DNA of 53,730 nt from a virus (taxonomy: Duplodnaviria > Caudoviricetes). Where the stretch lies: positions 1 through 53,730 of IMG/VR virus record IMGVR_UViG_3300003319_000115, one strand, 5' to 3'. Shown here piece after piece: positions 3,052-53,730 of this stretch; the stretch's first letter is position 1, and each line of letters begins with the position of its first letter. Below the pieces are notes generated by a model. The model searched no databases and was not told the origin of the DNA. It saw nothing but the letters and a program-made list of their open reading frames with translations. The position numbers and the translations under genes are program-made.

Positions 3052-6000
3052 CTACTTCCTCTTAGGTGTGTTACCAGTCCATTGATCCACCACACTAGCT
3101 GGACCTCTCTCATAACCTAAACCTAATCCAATACCTGTATTAACTTCCTCAAGTTTTAACTTATAATACTCTCCACTATCATCAATGGTGGGAACGCTAA
3201 TCGTGTAGCCTTCGCGCACGATTTCGTCCCACCAATTTTTATTTTGTTCATCTACGCGCGCACCTAAAGCTTGGCCCGCTACTTGATATCCCAAGTAACC
3301 ATTTTGCCACATTTCAAAAGCCCGCCACCAACCACTAACTGCGGAGTAGCCGGGAACCATTAAGGTCGCGTTGCGTAACAAGTTCTTCCTACCTGCCGTA
3401 GCAATAAACTCATTATCGTTTGTTGCGTCTCTAGCATTCTGATATGCAGTTACGAGAGGACCACCACCAAACAAGAGTGAGTTTGGTGTAGTCATCCAAC
3501 CGGATAAGTTAAATCCAGTAACAGCGTCGGCAGCGCGTAGAGCGATTTGAACTTCTGAAAACCTACGCATTCTTCCTACACGTTCTCCTAAATCCCCCAA
3601 CGTTGCTAACTTTCCTACAAATCTACTTTGCCACGCTGTCCATTGACCAAACTGACCAAACACTTTACCAGCTAACTTATCCCAACCTAAGGGATGGTTC
3701 ATGGCCCCATACACAAATCCTGTTTGTGCCCCATTAACACGCGCTAAGAACTTAGCGGCGTCTTGATATTGTTGCTTAGTGATAAGCCGGTCGAACTCTA
3801 GTTGAACGGAAGGATCGAAGGCGCTTAGACCAATCTTTTTATACACTTGCGCTTTATTCTCACTCCCATTCACTAATCCCTTCAACGCTTCCGCCGTGTT
3901 CGTAAACGATTCTAGGAACGCCGCCGAATGAAAGTTGTCATAAGCAGTTTTCTGCATCGAACCCGTAAACATGACATTCATGTAACCTTCCATGAGGCCA
4001 CGCCCAAACTCACGAACAACTCCGGGTTGTTCACCGGGAACGGAGAATTCAATAGGACTGAATTCACCAAATTGACCGGATTTCTTAAAGGCTTCCCGGA
4101 GTTCCCTCATTTCTCCGGTAGGTGCTAGGTACTTCAACAACCTTCTCGTTCTCTCCAATCCATGTAATGCATAATAGTTACCAATCATTCCTACAAAGTC
4201 ACGCGCACCTGCAACTGGACGTAAACCCTGTGCAGAAGCTTCAGCAATACCAATGTAGCGATTGAAGGTTTTACTGAACAGTTCAGCAACGTCTTTGGGA
4301 CTACGCTGGATACCTAACGTTTTTAAGAACTCCGAAGTATGCTCTGCCGTAGCATCAGCAATACGCTTACTACGGCCCGCCATACCTTCTAAGTAATCTA
4401 CCATCCTTGTCTCGATCTGTTGTGCATTCTTAGGTGCAGTAAGAGCAATACGTTTTACTTCTGCACTTATAGCATTCTTAGCATTGTTCCATGCTTCATT
4501 AAAGCCAAGCTCCTTTTTAATCGCACCAGTAGCATAACGAACTAACAGAGACATTGGATCTCTGTCAAGCATGTCGTTATTTAGCTCACCAGTGCGTATG
4601 AGTTCGCTAACAAACTCGTCAGGGCGACGCGACTTTAAAATATCTTCCTCAATAATAGCATCAGGGAATTGTCTATAGTGAGGAATGTACACTCTGATAA
4701 TGCGATCTTCTGCAATACCAGTAAGTTTGCTCAAGTCTCTAAAGTGGTCATCAAGCATCCGTGCAGCAACAGTAAATCTACCTTTAAGGTGTTCGGGAAC
4801 ACGTTGCTTAAGAAACTCATCTCGCGTAAGCCCAAACTTAGGGTCAAGTGCTTGTGCATAACGAGTAATAGCTAATAGAGAACTAGTATTCATATTACTA
4901 GCTGTTACTCGTTGAAACATTTCAAATGCTTTCATATGTAAGTCGTCCATTTGCATTTGATCTTTATGGACAGACATTACAGCTTGGAAAGCTTCAGGTT
5001 CTAATCCACGCTTCTCAGCATTGATATAAGCACGACGATACTTGAATACTTTATCAAGATCCACCTTGTTATCATACAACCATTGACCATCAGTAACTTC
5101 CTGTTTGGTCATTGAGCGGTGGAGGAGAGACGAGCGAACCTCGTTAGCACTAAGGGTTTCGGTGTAATCAAGTAAAAGTGCCCGCTCAGCACTAGTCATT
5201 CCCTTTAATACGTTGTCTAAGGGAAGGAACTTAACTTTCAGAGGTGTTACCTTACTAACATATTGTCTATGCAATACTTGTAAGCTATCGAATACTCTTG
5301 CGTAAAGACTTGTACGATACGTGTTATCAATAGATTTAAAATAATCGCCTCTAGCTGTTAACCAGGGTAAGCGAATATTGAGATAGTCAGCAATACCACC
5401 CAAGAACTTACTACCATAATTCGCTTCAAAGGGTTGCTCATACGCTTTAGGATACCTAACAGGCATACTCGGAGGTAACACAACTCCATCAGGAACAGGA
5501 GAATCAACAAGATCAATATTCTTCTCTTGTCCTGATTTATTAACAAACGCTAATGCTTCTTCACCGTTGCTGAACTTTTCCAGTACCTTCCCATCTTGTA
5601 CTCTCCTTAATATCACACCCCCACCCGGAACCATGTCGAAGTACATATTGTTCGTAATGGTAGCTACACTAAGTCTAGACGCAACCTCAGTATTAGCATC
5701 AATGTGACGTTGACGCTCCTCTAAGAGTCGGTCTATAGTAGCTTTGAGAACTGCGTGTTCTTCGTCGGGCAGTAGCTTTTCGAGACGTTTATTAAATCTA
5801 CTAACAAACTCATTTCTTAACGCAGGTATATCAGCTTGTGTGAATCCCTTTTCCTGCACAAAGGACTCAAACAAGTTATTGAAATTTATGCTAGCTGAAC
5901 CCCTTAACTTATCATACGCTTCTGCTAGCTGAGAAATCGTATGATAGAACTCAGCAAAGTATTGATTCAAAACTCTATCATACTTATCTTGAAGCTTGTT

Positions 6001-8961
6001 CTTTAATGGTGTAATCTTCACACCATCCATTTCTTGCTTGAGAACAAGTAGGCGGGCTCTTGCTGCATCACTGCCGGGAGCGGGCGTTGGTGTTGCCTGC
6101 TTAACACTTTGTAGCTCTGATACATTCTTATTAACATCACCTTTACCTAACTCAAACTCCAAACGGTCAATATCATTAGTTGATGTACTCAAGCTTTTGA
6201 TCGTTCCTAGTACACCAAAATCCTGATTCTTTAACAAACTCGTGTCACCAATCAACTCGCTAACAGCACCAGCAACTTGCTTGAATCGCTTGTCGAAGAA
6301 TTCTGTTTCACCAATACGAGGACTTTCTCTATTTCTAATTGCGCCATAATCATCATACAGCTTGGCTAAAGCTTCATTCAAATCTTTGTACTTTGAAATA
6401 TAATAATTAGCAATATCACTCGGTGACCCTGTGTACCAAGTTCTAATTGCTTCACGGTCGAATGCGTCTTTTTCTTTGTAATTAAGCTTAAGGTCTTGAG
6501 TAATATTTCTAAGTAAATTATCACTATCTACAGAAGGATGTGATAATCCTTCCAACAGGGTATTAATATCAACTTTCGCCACTGTACCTCTAGCTAATAC
6601 ATATTCAACTACATCCCCACCTAAACCGATAATATAGTTTAGTTGGGGATTTTGCGTTTCTGCTGGTCCAACTTTCTTAGGTTCAGCTAAACCTAATGAT
6701 ACTAAAGCATCGTGTTTTCCTCTTTCAAAATTAGGATTCTTAGTACCATTTCCCTCTTTTAAATATCCAATCATCTCTGGTTGAACTTTCAAAGCACCAA
6801 CGTCAACTAGTTCTGTAACAATTCCACCAATATAAGTCATGTTCAACAACCGTAGTGCTTCTGTATCATTTGGCACTATCTTATTAAAATGATCGTACAA
6901 TGAATCTAATGCTTCATTAATGGATTTTCTAGAATTAAGATAATGTGTAACAATACGCACACCGTCACCAGTTAACCATACTTCTGTATCATCGTGGGTT
7001 AATGGTGTTGCAATCTTTTCTCCTTCGGTCTTGCTTATAATATGTGCAATAACAGTTTCTCTATCAAGCCCCATCTCAGGGTCATTAATTGCTTCATTTA
7101 AGATATCAAATGGAGCATAGTTAAGTAACATCCTTTGTTGTTGATTTTTATCTAAATTACCATAACGCAACATGAAATTTGTGTAACGCTTAGACCCCTT
7201 AAATTCTTTACCAACAACACTCCCCTTCGCCATCTTAGCCTTCAATGCTTCCAACTTCGCTTCAACAGTATTTGGAGAGCGAGGAATAATTGTAGCTTGT
7301 GCAGCATTGGGAACGTCGCGGATGTCGTTGTGCTTGACTGAAAGCTCATTACCCTCACTGTCCTTCAACTTAATAACGTCACCATCTTGACCCTGAACAA
7401 AATACGACTTCCCATTAACAGAAACTTCCTCTTGCGGAATAAAGCCCGTTCGTTGAAAGAACTCAATGTGCCCAGTTGGTGTATTCTTATCTGCAATCAA
7501 TACATCAAACGTACCATCAGCATTCTTTCTGCTGATTCCTTGGCGCACGTTCTTAACAACATCATCATCCTCTAGTTTGGGAGGATTATTTATCAACTCC
7601 TTTAATTCTGCTTCCTCTCTAATTAAATTACTTTCCAACCTTGCCCGATCAGCAGCAAATTCTACAGTACCAGCAGCTTTAATTGCTTTGATGTCAGCAA
7701 TAATACGTTCCTTAATGTCTATCTCATCTTCATATGCTTGATACTTAGCTGCCCCCTTTTCTGTGAACAATGTCTCTGCGTGAGCAAAACTAGAAGCAAT
7801 ATCAGCAGATTGCACACCACGAACGATCTGTGCTCCCGGTATGCGTAACTTACCAGTGATTACAGCTTGAGCTAGATTATCAGCTGTAGCTATCGCCTCT
7901 AACTTCGCTGTACCAGAATTGATACTATCATCAATGTAAAGCTTTAATTGACGCTCATAGAGTAAGTTACGAGCTACAGTCTGAATAAGCTCGGGAGCTT
8001 CTAGAACGTTCCTTCCTCTAACACCTTGAAAGAAATCCACCGCAAACCCTAGTGGAATTCCCATAATGGTATTAAAGACGATATTCTTAAATGCATCTTT
8101 ATTACCAGCTTCACCAACAATACCGCCCGCTAAACCACCCACTGCACCACCCACCGTATCACCGATTAGATCGCGAGCTAACTTACCTAAACGTGGACCA
8201 CGTGCAGCATTTAGTAAAGCTTCACGACCAACGGTTTGTGTTGTACCTTTTACTAAGTTCTCTGCAATTTCTTTTCCTGCTTTCCTAAACGCACTTCCAG
8301 CCAAAGCTTCCTTTGTCACCATAGAAGCTCCACCAGTAGCGAAAATCATGATACCGTCAGCAAGGGCGTCTCGCATCTTTTCAGCCCTTTCCTCGGGCTT
8401 TAAGGCCCTCAAATCCTCACCAAAGGCTGTGTTTGCGAGAGTTTCAATGGGTCGCCCAACCATCTCCAAAAGCCCCAAGCCTAACGCGGGAACCCCTTTG
8501 GCAATAGTTGATAACTTTTCATCGCTCTTAGCAAAAGAGCGAGCAGAGTTGACAAACTCTTGTGCTCCTTCCGCACCACCACTAAGAGCCTGTACTCTAG
8601 CTGGAGTAAGGTCTTGTACACCAGAAATAGTGTAATCACCAATAGCTAACAGCTTGTTATAAAGCGCTACTGTAAAATCACTATAATCAGTGTTTTGTAA
8701 GTTAGTTAAAATTTTGTATCTATCAGCCAAGGCTTGCTTATTAATCATGTAATAGCCCGGCGTAAAAGCTTGCATGGTACGGGCTAAACCTGAAATATAC
8801 GATGTAAACGTAGTACGAGGTATACTATCGTCAACTTCGTCTAAAACACTATAATCAATCTTAGTATCTACTGCTTTTCTAGTAGATGATTTTCCCGGCG
8901 CTGTTTGCTTAGGTTCTTCCTCCTCAAGAATGCTCCAATCAATAGGCTTGGGTCCAGTCAT
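3052..8961 (-). CDS. very large internal virion / DNA ejection protein (1969 aa)
   Basis: Last gene of a podovirus-like late operon; Gly/Ala-rich hydrophobic N-terminal segments and helical body; assigned by position. Confidence 0.6.
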   Translation of the reverse strand: MTGPKPIDWSILEEEEPKQTAPGKSSTRKAVDTKIDYSVLDEVDDSIPRTTFTSYISGLARTMQAFTPGYYMINKQALADRYKILTNLQNTDYSDFTVALYNKLLAIGDYTISGVQDLTPARVQALSGGAEGAQEFVNSARSFAKSDEKLSTIAKGVPALGLGLLEMVGRPIETLANTAFGEDLRALKPEERAEKMRDALADGIMIFATGGASMVTKEALAGSAFRKAGKEIAENLVKGTTQTVGREALLNAARGPRLGKLARDLIGDTVGGAVGGLAGGIVGEAGNKDAFKNIVFNTIMGIPLGFAVDFFQGVRGRNVLEAPELIQTVARNLLYERQLKLYIDDSINSGTAKLEAIATADNLAQAVITGKLRIPGAQIVRGVQSADIASSFAHAETLFTEKGAAKYQAYEDEIDIKERIIADIKAIKAAGTVEFAADRARLESNLIREEAELKELINNPPKLEDDDVVKNVRQGISRKNADGTFDVLIADKNTPTGHIEFFQRTGFIPQEEVSVNGKSYFVQGQDGDVIKLKDSEGNELSVKHNDIRDVPNAAQATIIPRSPNTVEAKLEALKAKMAKGSVVGKEFKGSKRYTNFMLRYGNLDKNQQQRMLLNYAPFDILNEAINDPEMGLDRETVIAHIISKTEGEKIATPLTHDDTEVWLTGDGVRIVTHYLNSRKSINEALDSLYDHFNKIVPNDTEALRLLNMTYIGGIVTELVDVGALKVQPEMIGYLKEGNGTKNPNFERGKHDALVSLGLAEPKKVGPAETQNPQLNYIIGLGGDVVEYVLARGTVAKVDINTLLEGLSHPSVDSDNLLRNITQDLKLNYKEKDAFDREAIRTWYTGSPSDIANYYISKYKDLNEALAKLYDDYGAIRNRESPRIGETEFFDKRFKQVAGAVSELIGDTSLLKNQDFGVLGTIKSLSTSTNDIDRLEFELGKGDVNKNVSELQSVKQATPTPAPGSDAARARLLVLKQEMDGVKITPLKNKLQDKYDRVLNQYFAEFYHTISQLAEAYDKLRGSASINFNNLFESFVQEKGFTQADIPALRNEFVSRFNKRLEKLLPDEEHAVLKATIDRLLEERQRHIDANTEVASRLSVATITNNMYFDMVPGGGVILRRVQDGKVLEKFSNGEEALAFVNKSGQEKNIDLVDSPVPDGVVLPPSMPVRYPKAYEQPFEANYGSKFLGGIADYLNIRLPWLTARGDYFKSIDNTYRTSLYARVFDSLQVLHRQYVSKVTPLKVKFLPLDNVLKGMTSAERALLLDYTETLSANEVRSSLLHRSMTKQEVTDGQWLYDNKVDLDKVFKYRRAYINAEKRGLEPEAFQAVMSVHKDQMQMDDLHMKAFEMFQRVTASNMNTSSLLAITRYAQALDPKFGLTRDEFLKQRVPEHLKGRFTVAARMLDDHFRDLSKLTGIAEDRIIRVYIPHYRQFPDAIIEEDILKSRRPDEFVSELIRTGELNNDMLDRDPMSLLVRYATGAIKKELGFNEAWNNAKNAISAEVKRIALTAPKNAQQIETRMVDYLEGMAGRSKRIADATAEHTSEFLKTLGIQRSPKDVAELFSKTFNRYIGIAEASAQGLRPVAGARDFVGMIGNYYALHGLERTRRLLKYLAPTGEMRELREAFKKSGQFGEFSPIEFSVPGEQPGVVREFGRGLMEGYMNVMFTGSMQKTAYDNFHSAAFLESFTNTAEALKGLVNGSENKAQVYKKIGLSAFDPSVQLEFDRLITKQQYQDAAKFLARVNGAQTGFVYGAMNHPLGWDKLAGKVFGQFGQWTAWQSRFVGKLATLGDLGERVGRMRRFSEVQIALRAADAVTGFNLSGWMTTPNSLLFGGGPLVTAYQNARDATNDNEFIATAGRKNLLRNATLMVPGYSAVSGWWRAFEMWQNGYLGYQVAGQALGARVDEQNKNWWDEIVREGYTISVPTIDDSGEYYKLKLEEVNTGIGLGLGYERGPASVVDQWTGNTPKRK

Positions 8962-33958: not shown

Positions 33959-34360
33959 ATGCTTCTCGTTAAGGACACCATTAAGGGAAAGAATGTTGCC
34001 GCCGAGGGAGAGATTCCTGAGCAGGAAATCGAAGTTGAGATTCTTCAGTGTGAGAATCTTGAAGAGTGCATTCAGGATGCTGGTAGCGAGAATAACCTTC
34101 GTGATGCGTACAACGATCACAAGCGTAATCGTGCGCTGACTGCTGGACGTAATCAGTATCGTAACGCTCCGAAGGGAACGATTGTCAGTGAGCTTATCGA
34201 AAAGGTTAAGAACACTGTCAAGAACTTCTCGCTCTCTGAGTCTGAGCGTGGAATGGGCGTTAAGAAGAAGGCTGAGAAGGTTGATATGCTCAAGGCCGCA
34301 CTTGAGGCTGGTAAGGAGTTTTCGCGTGAGGAACTGCTTGCGATGCTGGCGAGTCGTTAA
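33959..34360 (+). CDS. monocistronic hypothetical protein, probably highly expressed
   Basis: Own promoter, AGAGGA SD, downstream terminator. Confidence 0.8.
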   Translation: MLLVKDTIKGKNVAAEGEIPEQEIEVEILQCENLEECIQDAGSENNLRDAYNDHKRNRALTAGRNQYRNAPKGTIVSELIEKVKNTVKNFSLSESERGMGVKKKAEKVDMLKAALEAGKEFSREELLAMLASR

Positions 34361-34370
34361 GGTTAGTTAG

Positions 34371-34440
34371 AGTAAGTTAAGGGTACTAAGTGATTGAGGT
34401 TTATTTAGCTCACTCACTTAGTACCCTTAATTTGCTTTTA
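34371..34440 (+). terminator. long hairpin / terminator
   Basis: agtaagttaagggtactaagtga ... tcacttagtacccttaatttgct followed by T-rich sequence. Confidence 0.65.
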
Positions 34441-34474
34441 ATTACTTGTTACTTCACGTTCGTTTGTGTCTTAT

Positions 34475-34746
34475 TTATTTCCCCATATTCCCTGTATTCC
34501 CATGGAACACGGGGAGAGAGATTGGAGCTTGGTTGTCTCTTTTTTCGGACACTGTATCAGTTTGACACACCCTAGGTCGCTTTTGTAACAATTTTATATA
34601 TTAAAAAAAAAAAAATAAAAAAGAAGAGAACAGGCACAGAACTTGAGCAGAGTCAAAATGACACAGGGAGATAGTGTATCAGAAAGACACACTCAACTAA
34701 CCTTCTCCCCGTGTTCCCCATTTTTCCAGGGAATATAGGGAAATAA
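34475..34746. repeat. bipartite long inverted repeat around an A/T core; candidate replication origin
   Basis: 34475-94 vs 34727-46 (1 mismatch); 34504-17 vs 34704-17 (perfect); A13 tract at 34603-15. Confidence 0.7.
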
Positions 34747-34751
34747 CTCTA

Positions 34752-36795
34752 ATGATTGAAGATAATAAAGATATTCAATGTCAAGGTTGTGGTAGAAAGT
34801 TAGAGAAGGATGACATAAATAAAGTAGATGAGTTAATTCTCTGTTTGTTTTGCTTGCCGAGTGTTGAAGAAATTAAAGAGTTCTACAAAAGGAAATAACT
34901 AATGCTCAATTATTATATTACTCCACGTTATGAATATACAGACCTATTGTGGATGATTGGTGTAGCTTGGGAGACTCATAATTATTATAACTATCAAGCT
35001 TGCATAGAACTCGATCTTCCACAATGGATAGTTAAATGATTATTAAGATTGGAGCATATAGGATAAAATTAGAGTTCAAGATTTATAAAGTTAATAAGCG
35101 AAACCAGCAAACAGTTATGAAGAATCTACCCTTCATATCTGAGAAGGATATATATATGACAAGAGAGGAACTCGAGATGCTAAATGAGAAAGTCAGAAAC
35201 TATAAGCTATAACTTCACCGACTTTTGGTACATAGCTCTAATTAGTACTCTCGGTGAGTGTTGGGTTAAACACAACTATAAGACTTATAATTACATTCTT
35301 ACTAACAAACTCAATGAGCTTTCAAGAAGAACTAACCAAGCTAACTGACACTCAATTGGCAGCTAGAGCAGCTGATGTAATTATGGATATTATTAGCAAC
35401 AACATGAGTCGCTCCGTCGCTGAGTTAAAGCTTGGTGATATCACGTACGAAGCAAAGAAGAGACAGACTGAGAAAAAGAAAACACTCAACTCACTATGAT
35501 TATCAACGAAAATGGCGAGCTTGATCCATATATTCTAGCTCGTACAGAGTTAATTAACGCTATTAACGCAGCTGATAAAACTACATATTTCGCTGCATTT
35601 CCAGAAAAGAAAGATAGAGCAATAGCTACTGTATACATTCTCGAAGATATAATCGAAAAGTTTGCAGGAAAGTTATTCTTGCAAAAAATCATTAACAAAG
35701 AATAAACAATGAAAAAAGTATTCTTCGCCAAAGATTATACGAAAGCCGTAGCGTATAAGGAGAATACTTATCCCTCCATTATGGTCCGAGAGCTTCACGC
35801 AACTCTGGGACCACTTTATGTGATTATTCCGGTGCCCACAAAAGAACGTTCACCTTATAGGGACATTGATTAAAATGCACCCAAACGAGCCACTTTTGGT
35901 TACCAACGTCGGTTGGAATAATAACGTTCCAACTTACGATTATACGAACGATTTCAAGCGTTTAGAGAGTAATGCATTTCACCTCGATTATCTCGATTGG
36001 AAGGGTTCTACCAACAATCCTGATTATCTTCGCGTTCAAGCTATGGATGCACAAGCAATGCGTCAGGCTTACGAGATTCTTGGTGTTGTTGAACCTTCAC
36101 CTGAACTCTAATGGCCCAAACACTAGAACAATTAGAGTCACTAATTAACGATGTAGCACTAGAATTAGGCAAGACTCTATTCTCACTCAAGCCCGGAATG
36201 TTTCGAATTTATTATGATAGTTCTTTGGAATCTTTGTTCAAGATCAAGGGTGGACCTCTAGTTGAAATCTACTTAGGAATCGGTCCCAACGACAAGGATT
36301 TCCGCTACGCCATTTTCGATTCCTTGAAGCAAGTTAAGTCGCTATACAAGCCAATGGCTTTGGTTCCTTATACGTTGAGTAAAAAGGATAAAAAGTCTAA
36401 ACTCAAAAAGGAACGTTGGGAACCTGAGTTTAAGCTTGACGAACGCCGCGTGCGCTTCACCACAAAGACAATTACGGAAGTAACAGCTACAGATCGCTTT
36501 ACAAATATTTCCGTAACACTGAAATCGAGCAAAATCAACGATATTGCGCTTAAGGAAGAGGCGCTAATTATTCTTTCACGTCGTGTTGAGTCCTACTATG
36601 AATCTCAAGCTGACGGACAGTGAAATTGAAGATGGTTGGACATTCAAAGTAGAATACAAAGGAACTTATGCTTGTTTTTATAGTTTCCATTCAGCAGCAC
36701 TAACTTACGCACGTCAGCTTAATGAGTTTAGTGCTATCGCTCCTAAATTCTACGTAAATTTTAACTACACTTGGATCGAACTCACAGCCTTGTAA
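34752..36795 (+). CDS. run of small hypothetical ORFs (e.g. 34752-~34902 CxxC protein, 35314-35499, 35496-35705, 35875-36111, 36111-36623, 36598-36795)
   Basis: Consecutive, often overlapping start/stop codons. Confidence 0.55.
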
Positions 36796-40253: not shown

Positions 40254-40949
40254 ATGCAATTCTATATCGGCTTACATGTTCCGGGCCATTGTTCACAGTT
40301 CTCTCACTCAATGGTAAGCGTCAACAGACTTCGTTACCTCGTTAAACACTTTACCCCAAACAAGTGGATTCTCGATAGTGGGGCATTTACAGAAATCAGC
40401 AAGTATGGAGAATACCGGCACAGCGTTGCCACTTACGCTAAAACCATAGAGAAGTGGAGAAGGAGCGGAACTCTACATGCCGTTGTGTCACAAGACTATA
40501 TGTGTGAACCCTTCATATTGAAGCGTTGGGGAACTACAGTTAGGGAGCATCAAGTTAAAACAGTATTACGTTACCTTGAATTACAATCACTCACCACCGT
40601 TTACATAATGCCCGTCCTACAAGGTTATACTACTTATGAATACCTTGAACACATCGAAATGTATATTGATTATATCTCACCTTCCCAGTGGATCGGAGTA
40701 GGTTCTGTGTGTAAGCGCAATACGAGTGACCCACAAGAAGTGTATAGGATACTTAGTGCTATTAAGAATCGCTTACCCGATATTAAACTCCATGGCTTTG
40801 GCTTGAAAGCTAATACTCTCAAAGACCCTAACATTTACTCACTTCTCCACTCCGCCGACTCAATGGCTTGGTCATTAAACGCAAAGCTTCAAGGCCGTGA
40901 CCCCAATGATATTAATGAAGCACTTAGATTCTGGCGCGAACTCAGTTAG
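40254..40949 (+). CDS. TGT-like (queuine tRNA-ribosyltransferase fold) protein, DpdA/DUF7221-like putative DNA base-exchange enzyme
   Basis: WILDSGAF, QDYMCEP, MPVLQG, IGVGSVC.R, LHGFG.K, SADSMAWS. Confidence 0.8.
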   Translation: MQFYIGLHVPGHCSQFSHSMVSVNRLRYLVKHFTPNKWILDSGAFTEISKYGEYRHSVATYAKTIEKWRRSGTLHAVVSQDYMCEPFILKRWGTTVREHQVKTVLRYLELQSLTTVYIMPVLQGYTTYEYLEHIEMYIDYISPSQWIGVGSVCKRNTSDPQEVYRILSAIKNRLPDIKLHGFGLKANTLKDPNIYSLLHSADSMAWSLNAKLQGRDPNDINEALRFWRELS

Positions 40950-47397: not shown

Positions 47398-47515
47398 TTA
47401 ATAGGGAATGGTCCCGGTGAGTAGTAACAGACAACAGCCCTGTTAGGGTTTAAAAGGCGAACCAATACAATAGCCTTCCCTGTAAAACGAAATCCGGGCG
47501 CCCACCCAATTACTT

Positions 47516-47948
47516 ATGTTCAGGATTCAAGTTAATAAAAAGTATGAGAAGGGTGATCGTATTAGGCTTATAGCTCACACTCCGAATAAATCAAGTCCCA
47601 CCCTCTTATGGGGCTTAGTGATGATCTATAAGCATCCATATATTTGGGTTCGTACAAACTCTAATATACCCGCGAACAGTAGAGTAACAGTTCGTGATTA
47701 ATCATTGGCAGATTCATACAGCAGATAATAGATACTACGTCAGCTTTGAAGTTGCTGTAATGGTATTAGCTAGTTGGAAAGCTGACGAAGGTATTATTGA
47801 GTTCAGCAATTTAGCTGATACTACTATTGCACTCAATACTTGTGACATTGAATGCATCTTCGAAGTTACTGAGGAATCAGTAAGATTCGAAGCAAAGATG
47901 AAGAAAGATATTATTGCTATTCAAGACGAAGTAGAACATTACAGTTGA
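47516..47948 (+). CDS. two small hypothetical ORFs (47516-47701, 47694-47948)
   Basis: ORF track, overlap coupling. Confidence 0.5.
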
Positions 47949-48032
47949 GTTCTAGGTTGGTGCGTGGAGTTATAACGAGATAACAGAAGCGCATCAACCG
48001 GAGTGTTTAGTGTTAGTTAAACACTCCAAAAA

Positions 48033-48106
48033 ACCCCGATAGCTCAGTCGGTTAGAGCAACTGACTTTTAATCAGTAGGTCGTGGGTTCGATTCCCACTC
48101 GGGGTA
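48033..48106 (+). tRNA. tRNA-Lys(TTT)
   Basis: accccga/tcggggt acceptor, D arm, actga-ctTTTaa-tcagt, gtggg-ttcgatt-cccac; no encoded CCA. Confidence 0.95.
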
Positions 48107-48111
48107 TTTGA

Positions 48112-48774
48112 TGGGGTAGCACACAGCGAACGTCTGACTAACTAGTAGCTGTGTGGAAACGTAGTCTTGTCAACTACGGGTGAAGGAAACGTCTCATAAA
48201 CGTAACCCTTCCTACCCACACTTTTTGGTTAGTTATACTCAGTTAGCGTATCAAGAGGGTATTGGCCCGCATAATCCAATGTAAGTTACCAGGCCGTTAG
48301 CTATAACTAACCATTAACTTAAGTGTGTAATCGAGATGGCGCACAGTAGGTTACTACGAGCACCCTCGTTGCGCGACCTCCGTATGGCGTCGTAAGGGTT
48401 AGTTAACGTTAACGACGTACCTCTAACTACCCTCCCTTCTCTTACACACTAGTTAAGCGTCTACCCTTATGTAATGTTGGGGAACTAGGCTAACATCTAG
48501 TGAAAATTAGCCCGCTTAACTTTAATTTCGTTCCCATTCGACTAGCGGTAAGTCGCCCCGTAAATAGCGTAGTGCTGCGACCACGTTCGGGCTTAATAGG
48601 TGCTGATCCTGCGCGCGGGACAGCAAATACCTATATGAGTACATATCCGTGGTGAGGGAAACGCCGTTTTCGATAGCGGCATGGGAATTTGGTGATGTGT
48701 CAGTAGCATAACGCGAGATAGTGTGGCCTAAGCCTAACGGCAGATGGGTAGAATCCCACTCTGACTATCACCAA
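48112..48774 (+). ncRNA. array of six structured RNA units, several tRNA-like
   Basis: Units 48112-48218, 48226-48313, 48314-48456, 48451-48521, 48531-48688, 48689-48774, each closed by a 6-12 bp terminal stem. Confidence 0.65.
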
Positions 48775-48779
48775 AATAA

Positions 48780-48851
48780 TCCCCACTCGTATAATGGTCA
48801 TTACACTGGACTTTGGCTCCGGGGATAATGGTTCGATTCCATTGTGGGGTA
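48780..48851 (+). tRNA. tRNA-Gln(TTG)
   Basis: ctgga-ctTTGgc-tccgg, aatgg-ttcgatt-ccatt, acceptor tccccac/gtggggt with 1-72 mismatch. Confidence 0.9.
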
Positions 48852-48855
48852 TCTA

Positions 48856-49940
48856 ATGGACTACAATAACTTAATAGCTTGTATCTACTACGATACAAAT
48901 GTCATAGAAATACTTGATCCACAAGAACCTGATATAAGAGTTATAATAGACTTACTCGGACTTGAAAATATACATTATGATAGAAATTACTTATTCAAAC
49001 TAGCCCGAGGCATTTTGAAGTTTGCAAAGGTTCCTCATGTACCATCGCCATTAATGGGAATGAAATATAATAACACTTACATTGATGAACTATGAATATT
49101 CCTGCCGAAGAATTAAATTATGTTATTCGCATTGAACAACGTTCTAGATTTTACCTAGATGCATTACGCTCTCAACTTCCTATTCCCGTATTTGCAACTA
49201 AAGAAGAAGAAATCGAAGAACATAGAAAAATCTTAGATGCTTATTGTAAAACTTGGTTAAGTTATAGGGATAAGTTATGAAGAAAACATTAATCATTGAC
49301 GTAATTTGTCCTCAATGTAAAGCAAAAGACAATGAAGTAGAAATAGAAATCACTGAACACGGTTATGATGGTTCCTACTTTAGCCCCGGTCATGGTTGTC
49401 AGTGGACAGTGATTAAGAATCAAGAGTGTGAACATTGTAAGCACAAGTTTACTGACGACGATCTAGAACCCTACGAAGTAGAAATCCAAATGAGATATAG
49501 TGAACCGAGTGATCCTTTATGAGCAAACAAGACATCGAACAATTCCTAAAGAAACTAGAAGGCAAGAAAATTGGTGATGGTATTGCAGCATTTGAAGAAC
49601 AGTTGGGTATAGAATTATTGAACGAAGATAATTCACATTATGGTGTATTGTGGTTTGATGTGGTGGTGCATGATGATGGTAAACCTGGATATGTGTTAAG
49701 AGTATGATTATCTCAATTAAACGTTTCATTCTTCAACACGATTTTGAAGTAGAAACACTAATAAACACACGATACATTTTAAAGATCGAAAATACTCAAC
49801 CACATGAAGGAAAACCAACAACTAGAATCTTAATGGATTCTCTAGATAGTAGTAGAGGACCAGATATTATTTATACATACGATACGTTAGGAACAATCAA
49901 AGGTAAGGTAACCAAAGCCCGGAAGGTACAAGGTGACTAA
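48856..49940 (+). CDS. run of small ORFs (48856-49095, 49092-49280, 49277-49522 Zn ribbon, 49519-49707, 49704-49940)
   Basis: ATGA-coupled chain; CPQC...CEHC. Confidence 0.65.
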
Positions 49941-50160: not shown

Positions 50161-50243
50161 GCCACTATGGCGAAATCGGTAAACGCAAGAGACTTAAAAT
50201 CTCTCACCCTTTGGGTTTGTGGGTTCGAGTCCCACTAGTGGCA
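50161..50243 (+). tRNA. tRNA-Leu(TAA)
   Basis: gccacta/tagtggc acceptor, agaga-ctTAAaa-tctct, long variable arm, gtggg-ttcgagt-cccac. Confidence 0.95.
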
Positions 50244-52215: not shown

Positions 52216-52446
52216 ATGGCAACAATAGTAAAGCTAATTAATGGTCCGTTTCACAGCCAAGTAAGGCACGTTGAATCATGGGAAGATACAATTAAAATAG
52301 AATATGTAAGTATGCAAGATTTACATGATAGTATGTTTAAACAACAGACACCGCCAACCTATGTTGGTTGGTATGTAAGAAAGCGTAATAGTCAAACTAA
52401 TGAAATAGCTTTTTTTTGGGAACAAAATGACCCTAATAGGAAATAA
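52216..52446 (+). CDS. hypothetical protein
   Basis: L.NGP..Q pattern; first ORF after the promoter. Confidence 0.6.
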   Translation: MATIVKLINGPFHSQVRHVESWEDTIKIEYVSMQDLHDSMFKQQTPPTYVGWYVRKRNSQTNEIAFFWEQNDPNRK

Positions 52447-53730
52447 ACCAGTTCCCGGCACCGGCCCCACTAACTCCAACATTCTCCTAGTTGGTGAAGC
52501 TCCGGGCGCTGATGAGGAACGTTTAGGAGAACCATTTGTTGGTTATTCGGGCGAGTTGTTGATGAACGTATTGGGACGCAACGGTATATCCCGCAACGAA
52601 GTCCGTCTCGATAACCTTTGTCACTACCGCCCGTCATCAAATAAGTTTCAGAACCTTGTAGGTTCCAAGGAACTTGTTCAAGGAATCCTCTCCCTTCATG
52701 ATTACCTCTCCAATCACAGACCCAACATTATCATTGCGTTGGGGAGCCAGCCACTTAAATACCTCACTGGAAAGGTTGGTATTGACAGATACCGTGGTTC
52801 TTTCCTCACTACCAACTTTAAAGACATACCGCCTATTAAGGTATTACCCACATATCATCCCGCTGCCGTATTGCGTGATCGGAAGCTCTACCCGATCTTC
52901 GACTTCGACATACGTCGTGGAATTTCTGATTCGAGTTTTCCCGATTTGCGGCTACCAGAGTACAATTTTGTACTTAATCCACAAGGTCTTGAAAGAGAGG
53001 AATGGACTGAGAAGTTATGCAACGCTAGAAAGCTGGCCGTTGACATCGAGGCTGTTAAAGATTCAACTCAAATCATCTGTGTGGGATTTGCCCTGGATGA
53101 AAAAACAGCAGTAGTTTTTCCGTACGATCATAATAATTACGAGAACATTGATCGAGTTTTACGTAGTGCTGCCACTAAAGTGTTTCACTTTGGCACTTAC
53201 GATAGCATCATGTTGGAGTTAAATGGACATGAAATTAAAAATTACAGCAGAGATACGCTCGTCGGACTTCACACTATCAATCCAGAACTTCCAAAATCTC
53301 TCGCCTTTGCAACTTCTATCTACACAAGACAACCTTATTACAAAGACGATGGACGAGGTTCACTCCCTAGCGATGCGAAAGCTTGGGGCAAGAAAAGAGA
53401 CAGAAACGATGTCTATGAATATAACGCTAAAGATTGTTGCGTCACCTGGTTGATTGATGAGAGGGAGCAGGAATATATTAGTGCTGATCCTCACTTTAAA
53501 GCGACATATGAACTAGAAATAAACTTAATTCCCGTAGCCCGCAAAATGAGTAAAACGGGAATGTTAGTGGACATGAAGCGTAGAGAGATGCTAAGAGTAG
53601 CCCTCCTCAATAAGTGGGCCAAAAAGCAATTTGCCTTAGATAAGCTCGTTGGTGAATCTGTAAATGTACGCTCACCGAAACTAAAAGATATTCTCTATGG
53701 AAAGTTCAAGCTTCCTGTCCAAAAGCTACG
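52427..53730 (+). CDS. polA: DNA polymerase A N-terminal subunit: family-4-like uracil-DNA glycosylase + 3'-5' exonuclease + thumb (continues at base 25, ends 436)
   Basis: Translated by hand (absent from the ORF track): LVGEAPGADE..GEPFVG.SG, PTYHPAAVLR; ExoI AVDIE, ExoII HFGTYD, ExoIII YEYNAKD; GMLVD. Confidence 0.92.
   Translation, partial: MTLIGNKPVPGTGPTNSNILLVGEAPGADEERLGEPFVGYSGELLMNVLGRNGISRNEVRLDNLCHYRPSSNKFQNLVGSKELVQGILSLHDYLSNHRPNIIIALGSQPLKYLTGKVGIDRYRGSFLTTNFKDIPPIKVLPTYHPAAVLRDRKLYPIFDFDIRRGISDSSFPDLRLPEYNFVLNPQGLEREEWTEKLCNARKLAVDIEAVKDSTQIICVGFALDEKTAVVFPYDHNNYENIDRVLRSAATKVFHFGTYDSIMLELNGHEIKNYSRDTLVGLHTINPELPKSLAFATSIYTRQPYYKDDGRGSLPSDAKAWGKKRDRNDVYEYNAKDCCVTWLIDEREQEYISADPHFKATYELEINLIPVARKMSKTGMLVDMKRREMLRVALLNKWAKKQFALDKLVGESVNVRSPKLKDILYGKFKLPVQKL

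Follow-up and report, generated by a model that had tools for sequence, protein, structure and literature searches.

Results

The DNA analysed here (the window) is the complete 53,730-bp IMG/VR record of an uncultured virus, with direct terminal repeats present. Between two of its transfer RNA (tRNA) genes lie 673 nucleotides (nt; positions 48107-48779), hereafter the array, which we read, at a probability of about one half, as a cluster of small structured non-coding RNAs that share a + strand precursor with the flanking tRNAs and are released from it by tRNA processing. The array is non-coding, its abutting terminal stems are non-random, one of its modules (unit E) carries a tRNA-type top half, and the tRNA genes on either side lie on the same strand. 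An earlier note, made by a model from the letters of the window, had proposed a co-processed cassette of tRNA mimics or novel small RNAs. A co-processed cassette of small RNAs remains the most economical reading, because the stretch is free of open reading frames (ORFs), is clamped by stems beyond chance, is wedged between same-strand tRNAs and is free of internal promoter- or terminator-like sites on the + strand. The label of tRNA mimics is not supported for units B, C, D and F, and finds support only in unit E, which the note had counted without describing it.

The array is non-coding and bounded by tRNA genes

The upstream boundary of the array is a tRNA-Lys (anticodon UUU; 48033-48106) and the downstream boundary a tRNA-Gln (anticodon UUG; 48780-48851), both on the + strand and both called by ARAGORN and by the Rfam tRNA model (79.5 and 52.6 bits, respectively). 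Together with a tRNA-Leu (anticodon UAA; 50161-50243, + strand, ARAGORN/Rfam call), these are the only tRNA or Rfam calls in the window at gathering score. The + strand carries the genes from ~31 kb on, and the flanking tRNAs and all of the neighbours of the array are likewise on this strand.

No ORF longer than 51 amino acids is contained in 48107-48779. The two longest + strand ORFs of the array have codon-usage scores of 0.016 (the 51-amino-acid ORF) and 0.16 per codon, compared with 0.2-0.5 per codon for most real genes, and hidden small protein genes were discounted on these low scores. The upstream ORFs at 47516-47701 and 47694-47948 score coding-like (0.22 and 0.41 per codon, respectively), and the array was therefore not extended over 47516-47948. 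No promoter- or terminator-like site was found inside the array on the + strand, so that the array is read most simply as one precursor with the flanking tRNAs.

The array consists of six stem-closed modules

The array splits into six self-closed domains, units A to F, laid back to back on the + strand. Units B and C abut directly (0 nt), as do E and F; C and D share 6 nt, and 9 nt separate D from E. The spacers between the units are 0-9 nt, in keeping with the earlier description of five units that reach tRNA-Gln almost without spacers, and those between the array and the flanking tRNAs are 4-7 nt (4 nt between F and tRNA-Gln). The pairing probabilities (P) given below are ensemble values from a partition-function fold of 47949-48900. 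The units were also compared with their own shuffles (200 each) by minimum free energy (MFE), and showed z-scores of −2.1 to −3.4.

Unit A (48113-48218) is a four-way junction closed by the stem GGGTAG/CTACCC (48114-48119/48212-48217, P 0.85). It bears three hairpins, at 48120-48155, at 48160-48178 (a 6-bp stem with the 7-nt loop CUUGUCA) and at 48182-48211, with P of 1.00, 0.96 and 0.98, respectively, and has a z-score of −2.62.

Unit B (48226-48313) is closed by the perfect 12-bp inverted repeat that had been reported for it (48226-48237/48302-48313, P 0.92). Its terminal stem is lengthened by 8 bp past a 4-nt bulge (AGTTAGCG/CGTTAGCT, P 0.91) and leads to a small apical junction, and the unit is predicted to be a long bulged hairpin (z −2.77). 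This extension competes with the two arms that had been described inside the unit, a D-arm-like CTC/GAG and an ATTGG/CCAAT arm with a loop of 10 nt, which have ensemble probabilities of 0.00 and 0.01, respectively.

Unit C (48314-48456, 143 nt) is multibranched, as the note had stated, and is closed by a perfect 9-bp repeat (AGTGTGTAA/TTACACACT, 48322-48330/48442-48450, P 0.93). An outer TTAAC/GTTAA pairing reaches only P 0.01. The unit holds the pyrimidine tract CCCUCCCUUCUCUU and has a z-score of −3.35. Unit D (48451-48521) has the expected 9-bp stem (48451-48459/48513-48521, P 0.96) and two nested hairpins (z −2.36); the GGCTAA/TTAGCC pairing that had been taken for a pseudoknot is predicted to form an ordinary nested hairpin abutting the 3' strand (P 0.89).

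Unit F (48689-48775) is a cloverleaf-sized four-way junction with a terminal stem of 9 + 5 bp, made up of TTTGGTGAT/ATCACCAAA (a perfect repeat, 48688-48696/48767-48775, P 0.90) and then GTCAG/CTGAC (P 0.98); its z-score is −3.13. The terminal stem agrees with the earlier description of this unit, and the D-like GCAT/GTGT arm of that description does not appear in the ensemble (P 0.00). The proposed T-like arm was correct as to its hairpin, TGGG-TAGAAT-CCCA, which stands in the T position and adjoins the 3' strand (P 0.93), and not as to its T-loop, the loop being of 6 nt without the consensus.

Units B and F have the same termini, 5'-UGGU...ACCA-3'. The ACCA, which is written in the genome itself, resembles the 3' end of a tRNA with A73 and pairs with the leading UGGU. 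CCA is not encoded in the three real tRNA genes of the phage, and the ACCA likeness was noticed post hoc.

The array contains seven perfect inverted repeats of at least 8 bp, five of which are of at least 9 bp; repeats of the latter length close three domains that abut in a chain. Over 3000 dinucleotide shuffles, the probability of at least seven repeats of at least 8 bp was 0.0003, and none of the shuffles had at least five repeats of at least 9 bp (0/3000) or a chain of at least three (0/3000). The other 673-nt windows of the genome included none with at least five repeats of at least 9 bp (0/1035) and none with any chain of at least two (0/1035). By this inverted-repeat statistic, the named stems are real and not due to chance. 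In 2.02 Mb of loci from relatives of the phage, abutting pairs were listed 47 times (~1 per 50 kb, with 8 in one repeat-rich place). The abutting-domain feature is therefore rare but not unique, and at a frequency of ~1 per 50 kb the presence of two abutting pairs within 300 nt is unusual.

Three short words recur in the array above the expectation from the rest of the genome, namely CTACCC/GGGTAG (five times, 0.12 expected), TAACTA/TAGTTA (six times, 0.55 expected) and GGAAACG (three times, 0.07 expected). Some of these words are the two arms of one stem, their spacing is irregular and their orientation is mixed. The recurring words could make contacts between domains, in which case the array might encode one or two large multi-domain RNAs (A-D, ~424 nt, or all 673 nt) acting as a unit in the manner of ROOL and GOLLD, with long-range contacts between the repeated motifs. 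The domains adjoin without spacers, and a length of 673 nt falls between the values given for ROOL (mean 581 nt) and GOLLD (>800 nt) in the reports cited below. We nevertheless consider a large RNA of this kind improbable. The long-range alternatives 48203/48401 and 48304/48405 both have P 0.00, and the ensemble prefers independent local domains; the internal tRNA-type element E predicts cleavage into pieces; no ROOL, GOLLD or other Rfam match was found at E ≤ 10 when 686 nt were searched alone; and the searches run gave no homologue with which tertiary pairings could be compared.

Several other identities were considered for the modules. Elements resembling miniature inverted-repeat transposable elements were dropped, every inverted repeat being unique, and RNase III sites were dropped as only unit B comes near a 20-bp helix. 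Group I introns, known ribozymes and riboswitches were without an Rfam match in the search of the 686 nt.

Unit E has a tRNA-type top half with a large insert

Unit E (48531-48688, + strand), on which a composite pattern and a custom tRNA covariance model agree, would be a giant RNA built on a tRNA-like scaffold. The composite pattern comprises a 7-bp acceptor stem, U8, a D-stem of 3-4 bp with the loop A..GG..A, and a 5-bp T-stem with a UUCRA loop that abuts the 3' acceptor strand. In unit E, the acceptor stem is TTCCCAT/ATGGGAA (48531-48537/48681-48687, 7/7 pairs), U8 is at 48538 and the discriminator, a T, is at 48688. The D-stem is GACT/AGTC (48540-48543/48551-48554, 4/4 pairs) with the loop AGCGGTA, which supplies A14, G18, G19 and A21. 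The T-stem is GCCGT/GCGGC (48663-48667/48676-48680, 5/5 pairs) and adjoins the 3' acceptor strand; it holds an 8-nt T-loop, TTTCGATA, which is UUCGA plus one extra U. A standard anticodon arm (5-bp stem and 7-nt loop) is absent. An anticodon-stem remnant of three pairs (CCC...GGG), which contains a C-A mismatch, encloses a Y-shaped insert of ~97-104 nt in the place of the anticodon loop. The unit folds better by 12 kcal/mol on the + strand, where it has 7 G-U pairs, and the tRNA-constrained fold is at −53.2 kcal/mol compared with an MFE of −57.3 kcal/mol (a cost of 4.1 kcal/mol).

The composite pattern matches only tRNA-Lys, tRNA-Leu and unit E in the window. Its matches in the relatives' loci (2.02 Mb) are 14 ARAGORN-called tRNAs and one false positive, and its background is 10 matches in 41.4 M shuffled strand-bases and 1/20,000 array shuffles. 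A pattern of acceptor and T-arm only was rejected as unspecific, with 89 real matches compared with 40-51 in shuffles. As an independent check, a covariance model was built from 30 tRNAs and searched on the array with the filters off. Its top match in the array was 48531-48689, full-length, with a score of 10.9 bits, an E-value of 0.012 and the same arm assignments as in the pattern. Unit E is a degenerate or remodelled tRNA derivative and not a clean one, and its derivation from a tRNA is very probable. The idea of an archaeal-type tRNA intron in unit E was dropped, as the M15 peptidoglycan peptidase and the GroES of the phage imply a bacterial host.

The remaining units showed no such resemblance. 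Units B, C, D and F, which the earlier note had presented as tRNA-like, received no call from ARAGORN, Rfam or a profile hidden Markov model (HMM). ARAGORN made no call within 48107-48779 by default or at -ps80. At -ps60 it gave 16 'genes' on both strands of 1.5 kb, including a Leu(taa) in unit F, which was regarded as noise because the calls at this setting are mostly spurious. The tRNA profile HMM (--max, E ≤ 100) had no match in the array, and the composite pattern had no match in A, B, C, D or F. With the custom covariance model, unit F scored 6.7 bits (E-value 0.15, not significant) and unit A 5.7 bits (E-value 0.28), and the array units other than E, F and A scored at most 3.7 bits. A match to a known Rfam family would have counted against the reading of the earlier note; the search of the 686 nt alone at E ≤ 10 returned no tRNA and no other relevant family. 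For transfer-messenger RNA (tmRNA), ARAGORN found none in the window by default, and only spurious permuted calls at -ps70.

The array occupies a variable slot in its phage group

The phage is of the podovirus type, with an SU10-type portal and adaptor and a GP4-type fibre domain; it further encodes a UDG-exonuclease-PolA polymerase, an SNF2 helicase, DpdA, the M15 peptidase and GroES. Its relatives were represented by at least 80 DNA polymerase loci from IMG/VR and at least 80 from JGI metagenomes. Among the matches listed, the closest polymerases were 53% (P0002, a 26.7-kb contig), 49% (L002) and 42% (L084) identical, and the best of the JGI metagenome loci were 42-44% identical. The identity to cultured phages (tblastn) was at most 29.5%, and on these comparisons the phage appears to be an orphan.

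The gene order around the array is conserved, and comprises a nuclease, a Sak4-like protein, a 151-amino-acid protein, a variable slot, a GroES-like protein and the polymerase. The slot measures 3.2 kb here, ~1.0 kb in L002 and 0.18 kb in L084. In L002, it holds a 292-nt non-coding structured stretch (6249-6540, z −2.8), in which a 16-bp stem closes a three-way junction. This stretch ends in an acceptor/T-arm minihelix without a D-arm (6473-6536), which is a weak match to the mascRNA model (19.2 bits). In L084, the slot has a ~95-nt tRNA-like element with a consensus T-arm (~7560-7670), and in L007 a tRNA-Gln. More distant relatives have single tRNA-Gln or tRNA-Leu genes with ORFs tight on both sides, or, in L040, a tmRNA (3910-4256). 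In the distant locus L050, two oversized tRNA-Leu-like modules, of 113 and 130 nt, follow one another in tandem (3888-4000 and 4018-4147). Their acceptor, D and T arms are identical and their anticodon-arm inserts differ, with 43 and 72 nt skipped by the Rfam tRNA model. These modules score 35.7 and 34.9 bits with that model, above the gathering score, and ARAGORN is silent on them. Because the slots of the relatives differ from the array yet contain RNA genes, the slot appears to house the tRNAs and tRNA-shaped RNAs of this phage group, and the array would be a lineage-specific expansion of it.

Counter-evidence and alternative explanations

Several results weigh against reading the array as a cluster of processed RNAs, and these concern its folding, the status of unit E and its homologues. 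The overall folding energy of the array is unexceptional for this genome. Its GC-adjusted MFE is just 1.28 standard deviations under the genome trend (rank 18/231), and 52/480 ordinary 120-nt windows of the genome reach a z-score of −2.5 or lower. The two strands of the whole array fold near-equally (−218.3 vs −214.0 kcal/mol, z −3.9 vs −3.5), with E and F folding better on the + strand and A (−43.0 vs −35.5 kcal/mol) and, slightly, C folding better on the − strand. The closing stems are perfect Watson-Crick helices without G-U pairs, and such stems would equally suit a role at the DNA level or a recent origin.

A DNA-level element, whether a replication origin, a recombination hotspot or a protein-binding array, would have its repeats or words recognised as DNA or as single-stranded DNA hairpins. 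The near-equal folding of the strands and the palindromic arms are in line with such an element, as are the enrichment of short words by up to ~40-fold and the position of two recombination genes, for a PD-(D/E)XK nuclease and a Sak4-like annealase, just upstream of the array. We hold it to be very improbable, however, since arms 60-130 bp apart do not form cruciforms, the words are irregular and of mixed orientation, and the array, at a GC content of 46-50%, which is higher than the genome average, has no AT-rich unwinding region. The same-strand tRNA unit and the oriented unit E, whose 7 G-U pairs occur only on the + strand, point to RNA, and a better candidate for control at the DNA level lies elsewhere, at 34.3-35.0 kb.

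With regard to unit E, the T-loop has an additional base and U53-G61 replaces a G-C pair. The composite pattern was composed only after unit E had been noticed. When the covariance model was searched on the whole window, the E-value of unit E was 0.92 and it ranked third among the non-tRNA matches; two coding-region matches, which we take as chance, outscore it genome-wide (12.3 and 11.2 bits). The Rfam tRNA model does not list unit E at E ≤ 10, yet it finds the modules of L050 above the gathering score.

No homologue of any unit was found in the searches run, and hence there is no covariation support. With 47400-48900 as the query, blastn (word size 11) matched 783 of 50,697 phage records, the best 40 of which cover only the tRNA-Lys part. 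The array had no match in the relatives' loci by blastn and nhmmer, and the complete records from which L007, L009 and L069 derive gave only chance matches of 17-19 nt when searched at the DNA level. An exact scan of IMG/VR with a 25-mer from tRNA-Gln and an 18-mer from the D-arm of unit E had 0 matches, and the same 18-mer had three matches in 185,579 prokaryote genomes, none of them within a tRNA. The two genes just upstream had no relative in IMG/VR as single-protein queries; the 151-amino-acid protein had no tblastn match in phages and, among 5.8 billion proteins, matched only itself. Among the sequencing runs listed, none of RNA contains the stretch. It is contained in two DNA runs of one study, which may be the source of the record, and as their contigs are identical and without variants there is no covariation within the population. 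The nearest relatives lack the array in their syntenic slot. Such non-conservation had been named in the earlier note as a result that would speak against its reading, but with polymerases at most 49% identical these relatives are too distant to say much. A Pfam scan of 70 ORFs brought up no obvious protein partner for the RNAs, with no Ro/TROVE domain, RtcB, CCA-adding enzyme, reverse transcriptase or RNA ligase among them.

Another possibility is that the array is evolutionary debris, or a spacer with effects only in cis, within a hypervariable slot. Unit E would then be a former tRNA gene, inactivated by DNA inserted into its anticodon loop and slightly decayed since; the other hairpins would be scars of insertion or recombination, or punctuation for the correct folding and processing of the flanking tRNAs, and nothing would act in trans. 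The slot differs in every relative examined, from ~0.2 to 3.2 kb and with other ORFs and other tRNAs, and no counterpart of the array was met with anywhere in the searches. Unit E is off consensus where decay would show, in the extra U of the T-loop, in U53-G61 and in the C-A mismatch of the anticodon-stem remnant, and its 10.9 bits compare with 35-36 bits for the intact modules of L050. The unexceptional energetics of the array are also consistent with debris. Decay breaks stems, however, yet the five terminal stems (9-12 bp) are without a mismatch, and the helices of the top half of unit E are fully paired (7/7, 4/4 and 5/5) with U8, A14, GG, A21 and UUCGA kept. No other part of the genome has a chain of abutting domains with long closing repeats, and 673 useless nt would be costly in a densely packed 53.7-kb phage genome. 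We therefore regard debris as unlikely, while keeping it in view.

Proposed processing of the array

If the array is a cluster of small RNAs on the tRNA precursor, its products can be laid out from the positions of the tRNA-type ends. Transcription, each cleavage site, the stability of the products and any function in trans are points that we infer. RNase P would generate the 5' end of unit E by a cut at 48530/48531 and that of tRNA-Gln by a cut at 48779/48780, and 3'-end tRNA processing would cut after tRNA-Lys (48106) and after the discriminator of unit E (48688). Three products would result: a ~424-nt block of the clamp-closed modules A-D; unit E as a 158-nt RNA, in which the tRNA top half would serve as a processing and stability scaffold for a ~100-nt Y-shaped payload; and unit F as a cloverleaf-sized module of ~87-91 nt. 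The long terminal stems would shield these products from exonucleases. It is a guess that the RNAs engage host tRNA-binding or RNA-binding proteins as decoys or sponges.

A more specific proposal, which we put forward only as a long shot, is that of an 'RNA payload operon'. Here, clamp-closed RNAs would be cut out by tRNA-processing enzymes, with unit E on a natural tRNA scaffold and the ACCA of units B and F masked by UGGU, and would serve as decoys, either for host defence nucleases that target tRNAs or for enzymes that handle tRNAs, or else assemble into a multi-RNA particle. Were this true, it would supply a function for the RNAs of phage tRNA clusters, which have been unexplained since T4 rnaC and rnaD. 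Should the modules be real processed RNAs, phages would be using the slot to try tRNA-shaped RNAs again and again, perhaps to counter host defences aimed at tRNAs. With a single orphan genome behind it, the case is of value as a lead and not as a result.

Other features of the genome

Among the 673-nt windows of the genome, corrected for GC, the one with the greatest excess of structure lies at 34273-35035 (−3.85 standard deviations). This region includes an ORF-poor gap (34576-35035) and the longest perfect inverted repeats of the genome, of 17 bp (34377-34393/34414-34430) and 14 bp (34504-34517/34704-34717). Lying close to where the + strand gene block begins, it may serve in regulation or as an origin. 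The 673-nt windows from 47489 and 47713 rank second and third in the genome for excess structure. Short structured non-coding elements were also noted upstream of tRNA-Lys, at 47398-47515, a 118-nt stem-closed element directly after the 151-amino-acid gene, and at 47958-48027, where two strong hairpins stand just before the tRNA.

Codon counts over 14 long ORFs showed CAA (214) to be commoner than CAG (88) and TTA (223) to be the commonest Leu codon, and tRNA-Gln(UUG) and tRNA-Leu(UAA) fit these preferred codons of the phage. AAA (208) is slightly rarer than AAG (267).

The UDG-exonuclease-PolA polymerase gene spans the ends of the record (52427-53728 and 27-1395), and the start of the record is therefore arbitrary, inside or beside this gene. 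In the relatives, the polymerase is a single protein of ~800-830 amino acids; in L002, there are two matching parts ~780 nt apart. The DpdA homologue (40254-40949; Pfam PF23859, E-value 7e-37) suggests, from its family assignment, a 7-deazaguanine modification of the phage DNA.

Comparison with known systems

Unit E looks like a natural counterpart of the 'tRNA scaffold' trick of biotechnology. The engineered tRNA scaffold of Ponchon and Dardel is reported to be processed and protected in E. coli with inserts of up to ~250 nt (PMC3753655). As described there, it retains the acceptor, T and D arms and carries a structured insert at the anticodon stem-loop, as does unit E. The engineered scaffold is man-made; for unit E, processing and stability are predicted.

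The covariance models of ROOL and GOLLD, which we take to be Rfam RF03087 and RF01998, had no match at gathering score or at E ≤ 10. These are phage and prophage RNAs (mean 581 nt for ROOL and >800 nt for GOLLD) that are described as often lying near tRNAs and as possibly co-transcribed with them (PMC5737381; bioRxiv 10.1101/2024.12.08.627333). On these descriptions, the array resembles them as large multi-junction non-coding phage RNA near a tRNA island. Unlike them, it is predicted to fold as independent local domains and has an internal tRNA-type processing element.

The Y-RNA-like YrlA RNAs of bacteria and phages (Rfam RF02553) share with the array a tRNA-like module and a long terminal stem. 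The only match to this family was at 17.3 bits (gathering score 69) over the genuine tRNA-Lys, with none in the array at E ≤ 10, and no Ro/TROVE domain, the partner of YrlA, was found among the 70 ORFs scanned. The ends of YrlA are located in the Ro-binding stem and not in an acceptor stem.

The modules of L050 come from the same broad UDG-PolA phage group as the present phage and are in tandem beside tRNA genes. Like unit E, they keep the acceptor, D-arm and T-arm and have the anticodon part swapped for an insert (43-72 nt compared with ~100 nt). They differ from unit E in their textbook tRNA-Leu-type top half and have no sequence similarity to it, and units A-D and F have no counterpart in L050.

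The tRNA clusters of phages have been known for some fifty years to encode extra small stable RNAs, such as rnaC and rnaD of T4. In T4, tRNA-Arg, rnaD (119 nt, species 2) and rnaC (139 nt, species 1) are 1 and 6 nt apart. The roles of the two RNAs are described as still unexplained in two reports (PMC3014915; PMC9697503). Like the units of the array, they are non-coding RNAs in the range of 70-170 nt that stand, near-spacerless, behind a tRNA in a phage tRNA transcription unit, and rnaC has, like unit E, a consensus T-arm near its 3' end and a large non-tRNA interior. No sequence similarity to the array was seen among the matches listed in the blastn search, the phage set of which contains T4. 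Unlike unit E, rnaC and rnaD both fail the composite top-half pattern, and a 7-bp acceptor stem with a canonical D-arm is missing from each. Processing and stability have been shown for the two RNAs of T4 and would be expected, by analogy, of the six modules here. The rnaD/rnaC layout appears, from this likeness of arrangement, to be the closest natural precedent for the array, which is a further case of a known class, the extra RNAs of phage tRNA clusters, and a dense example of it, with six modules in 673 nt.

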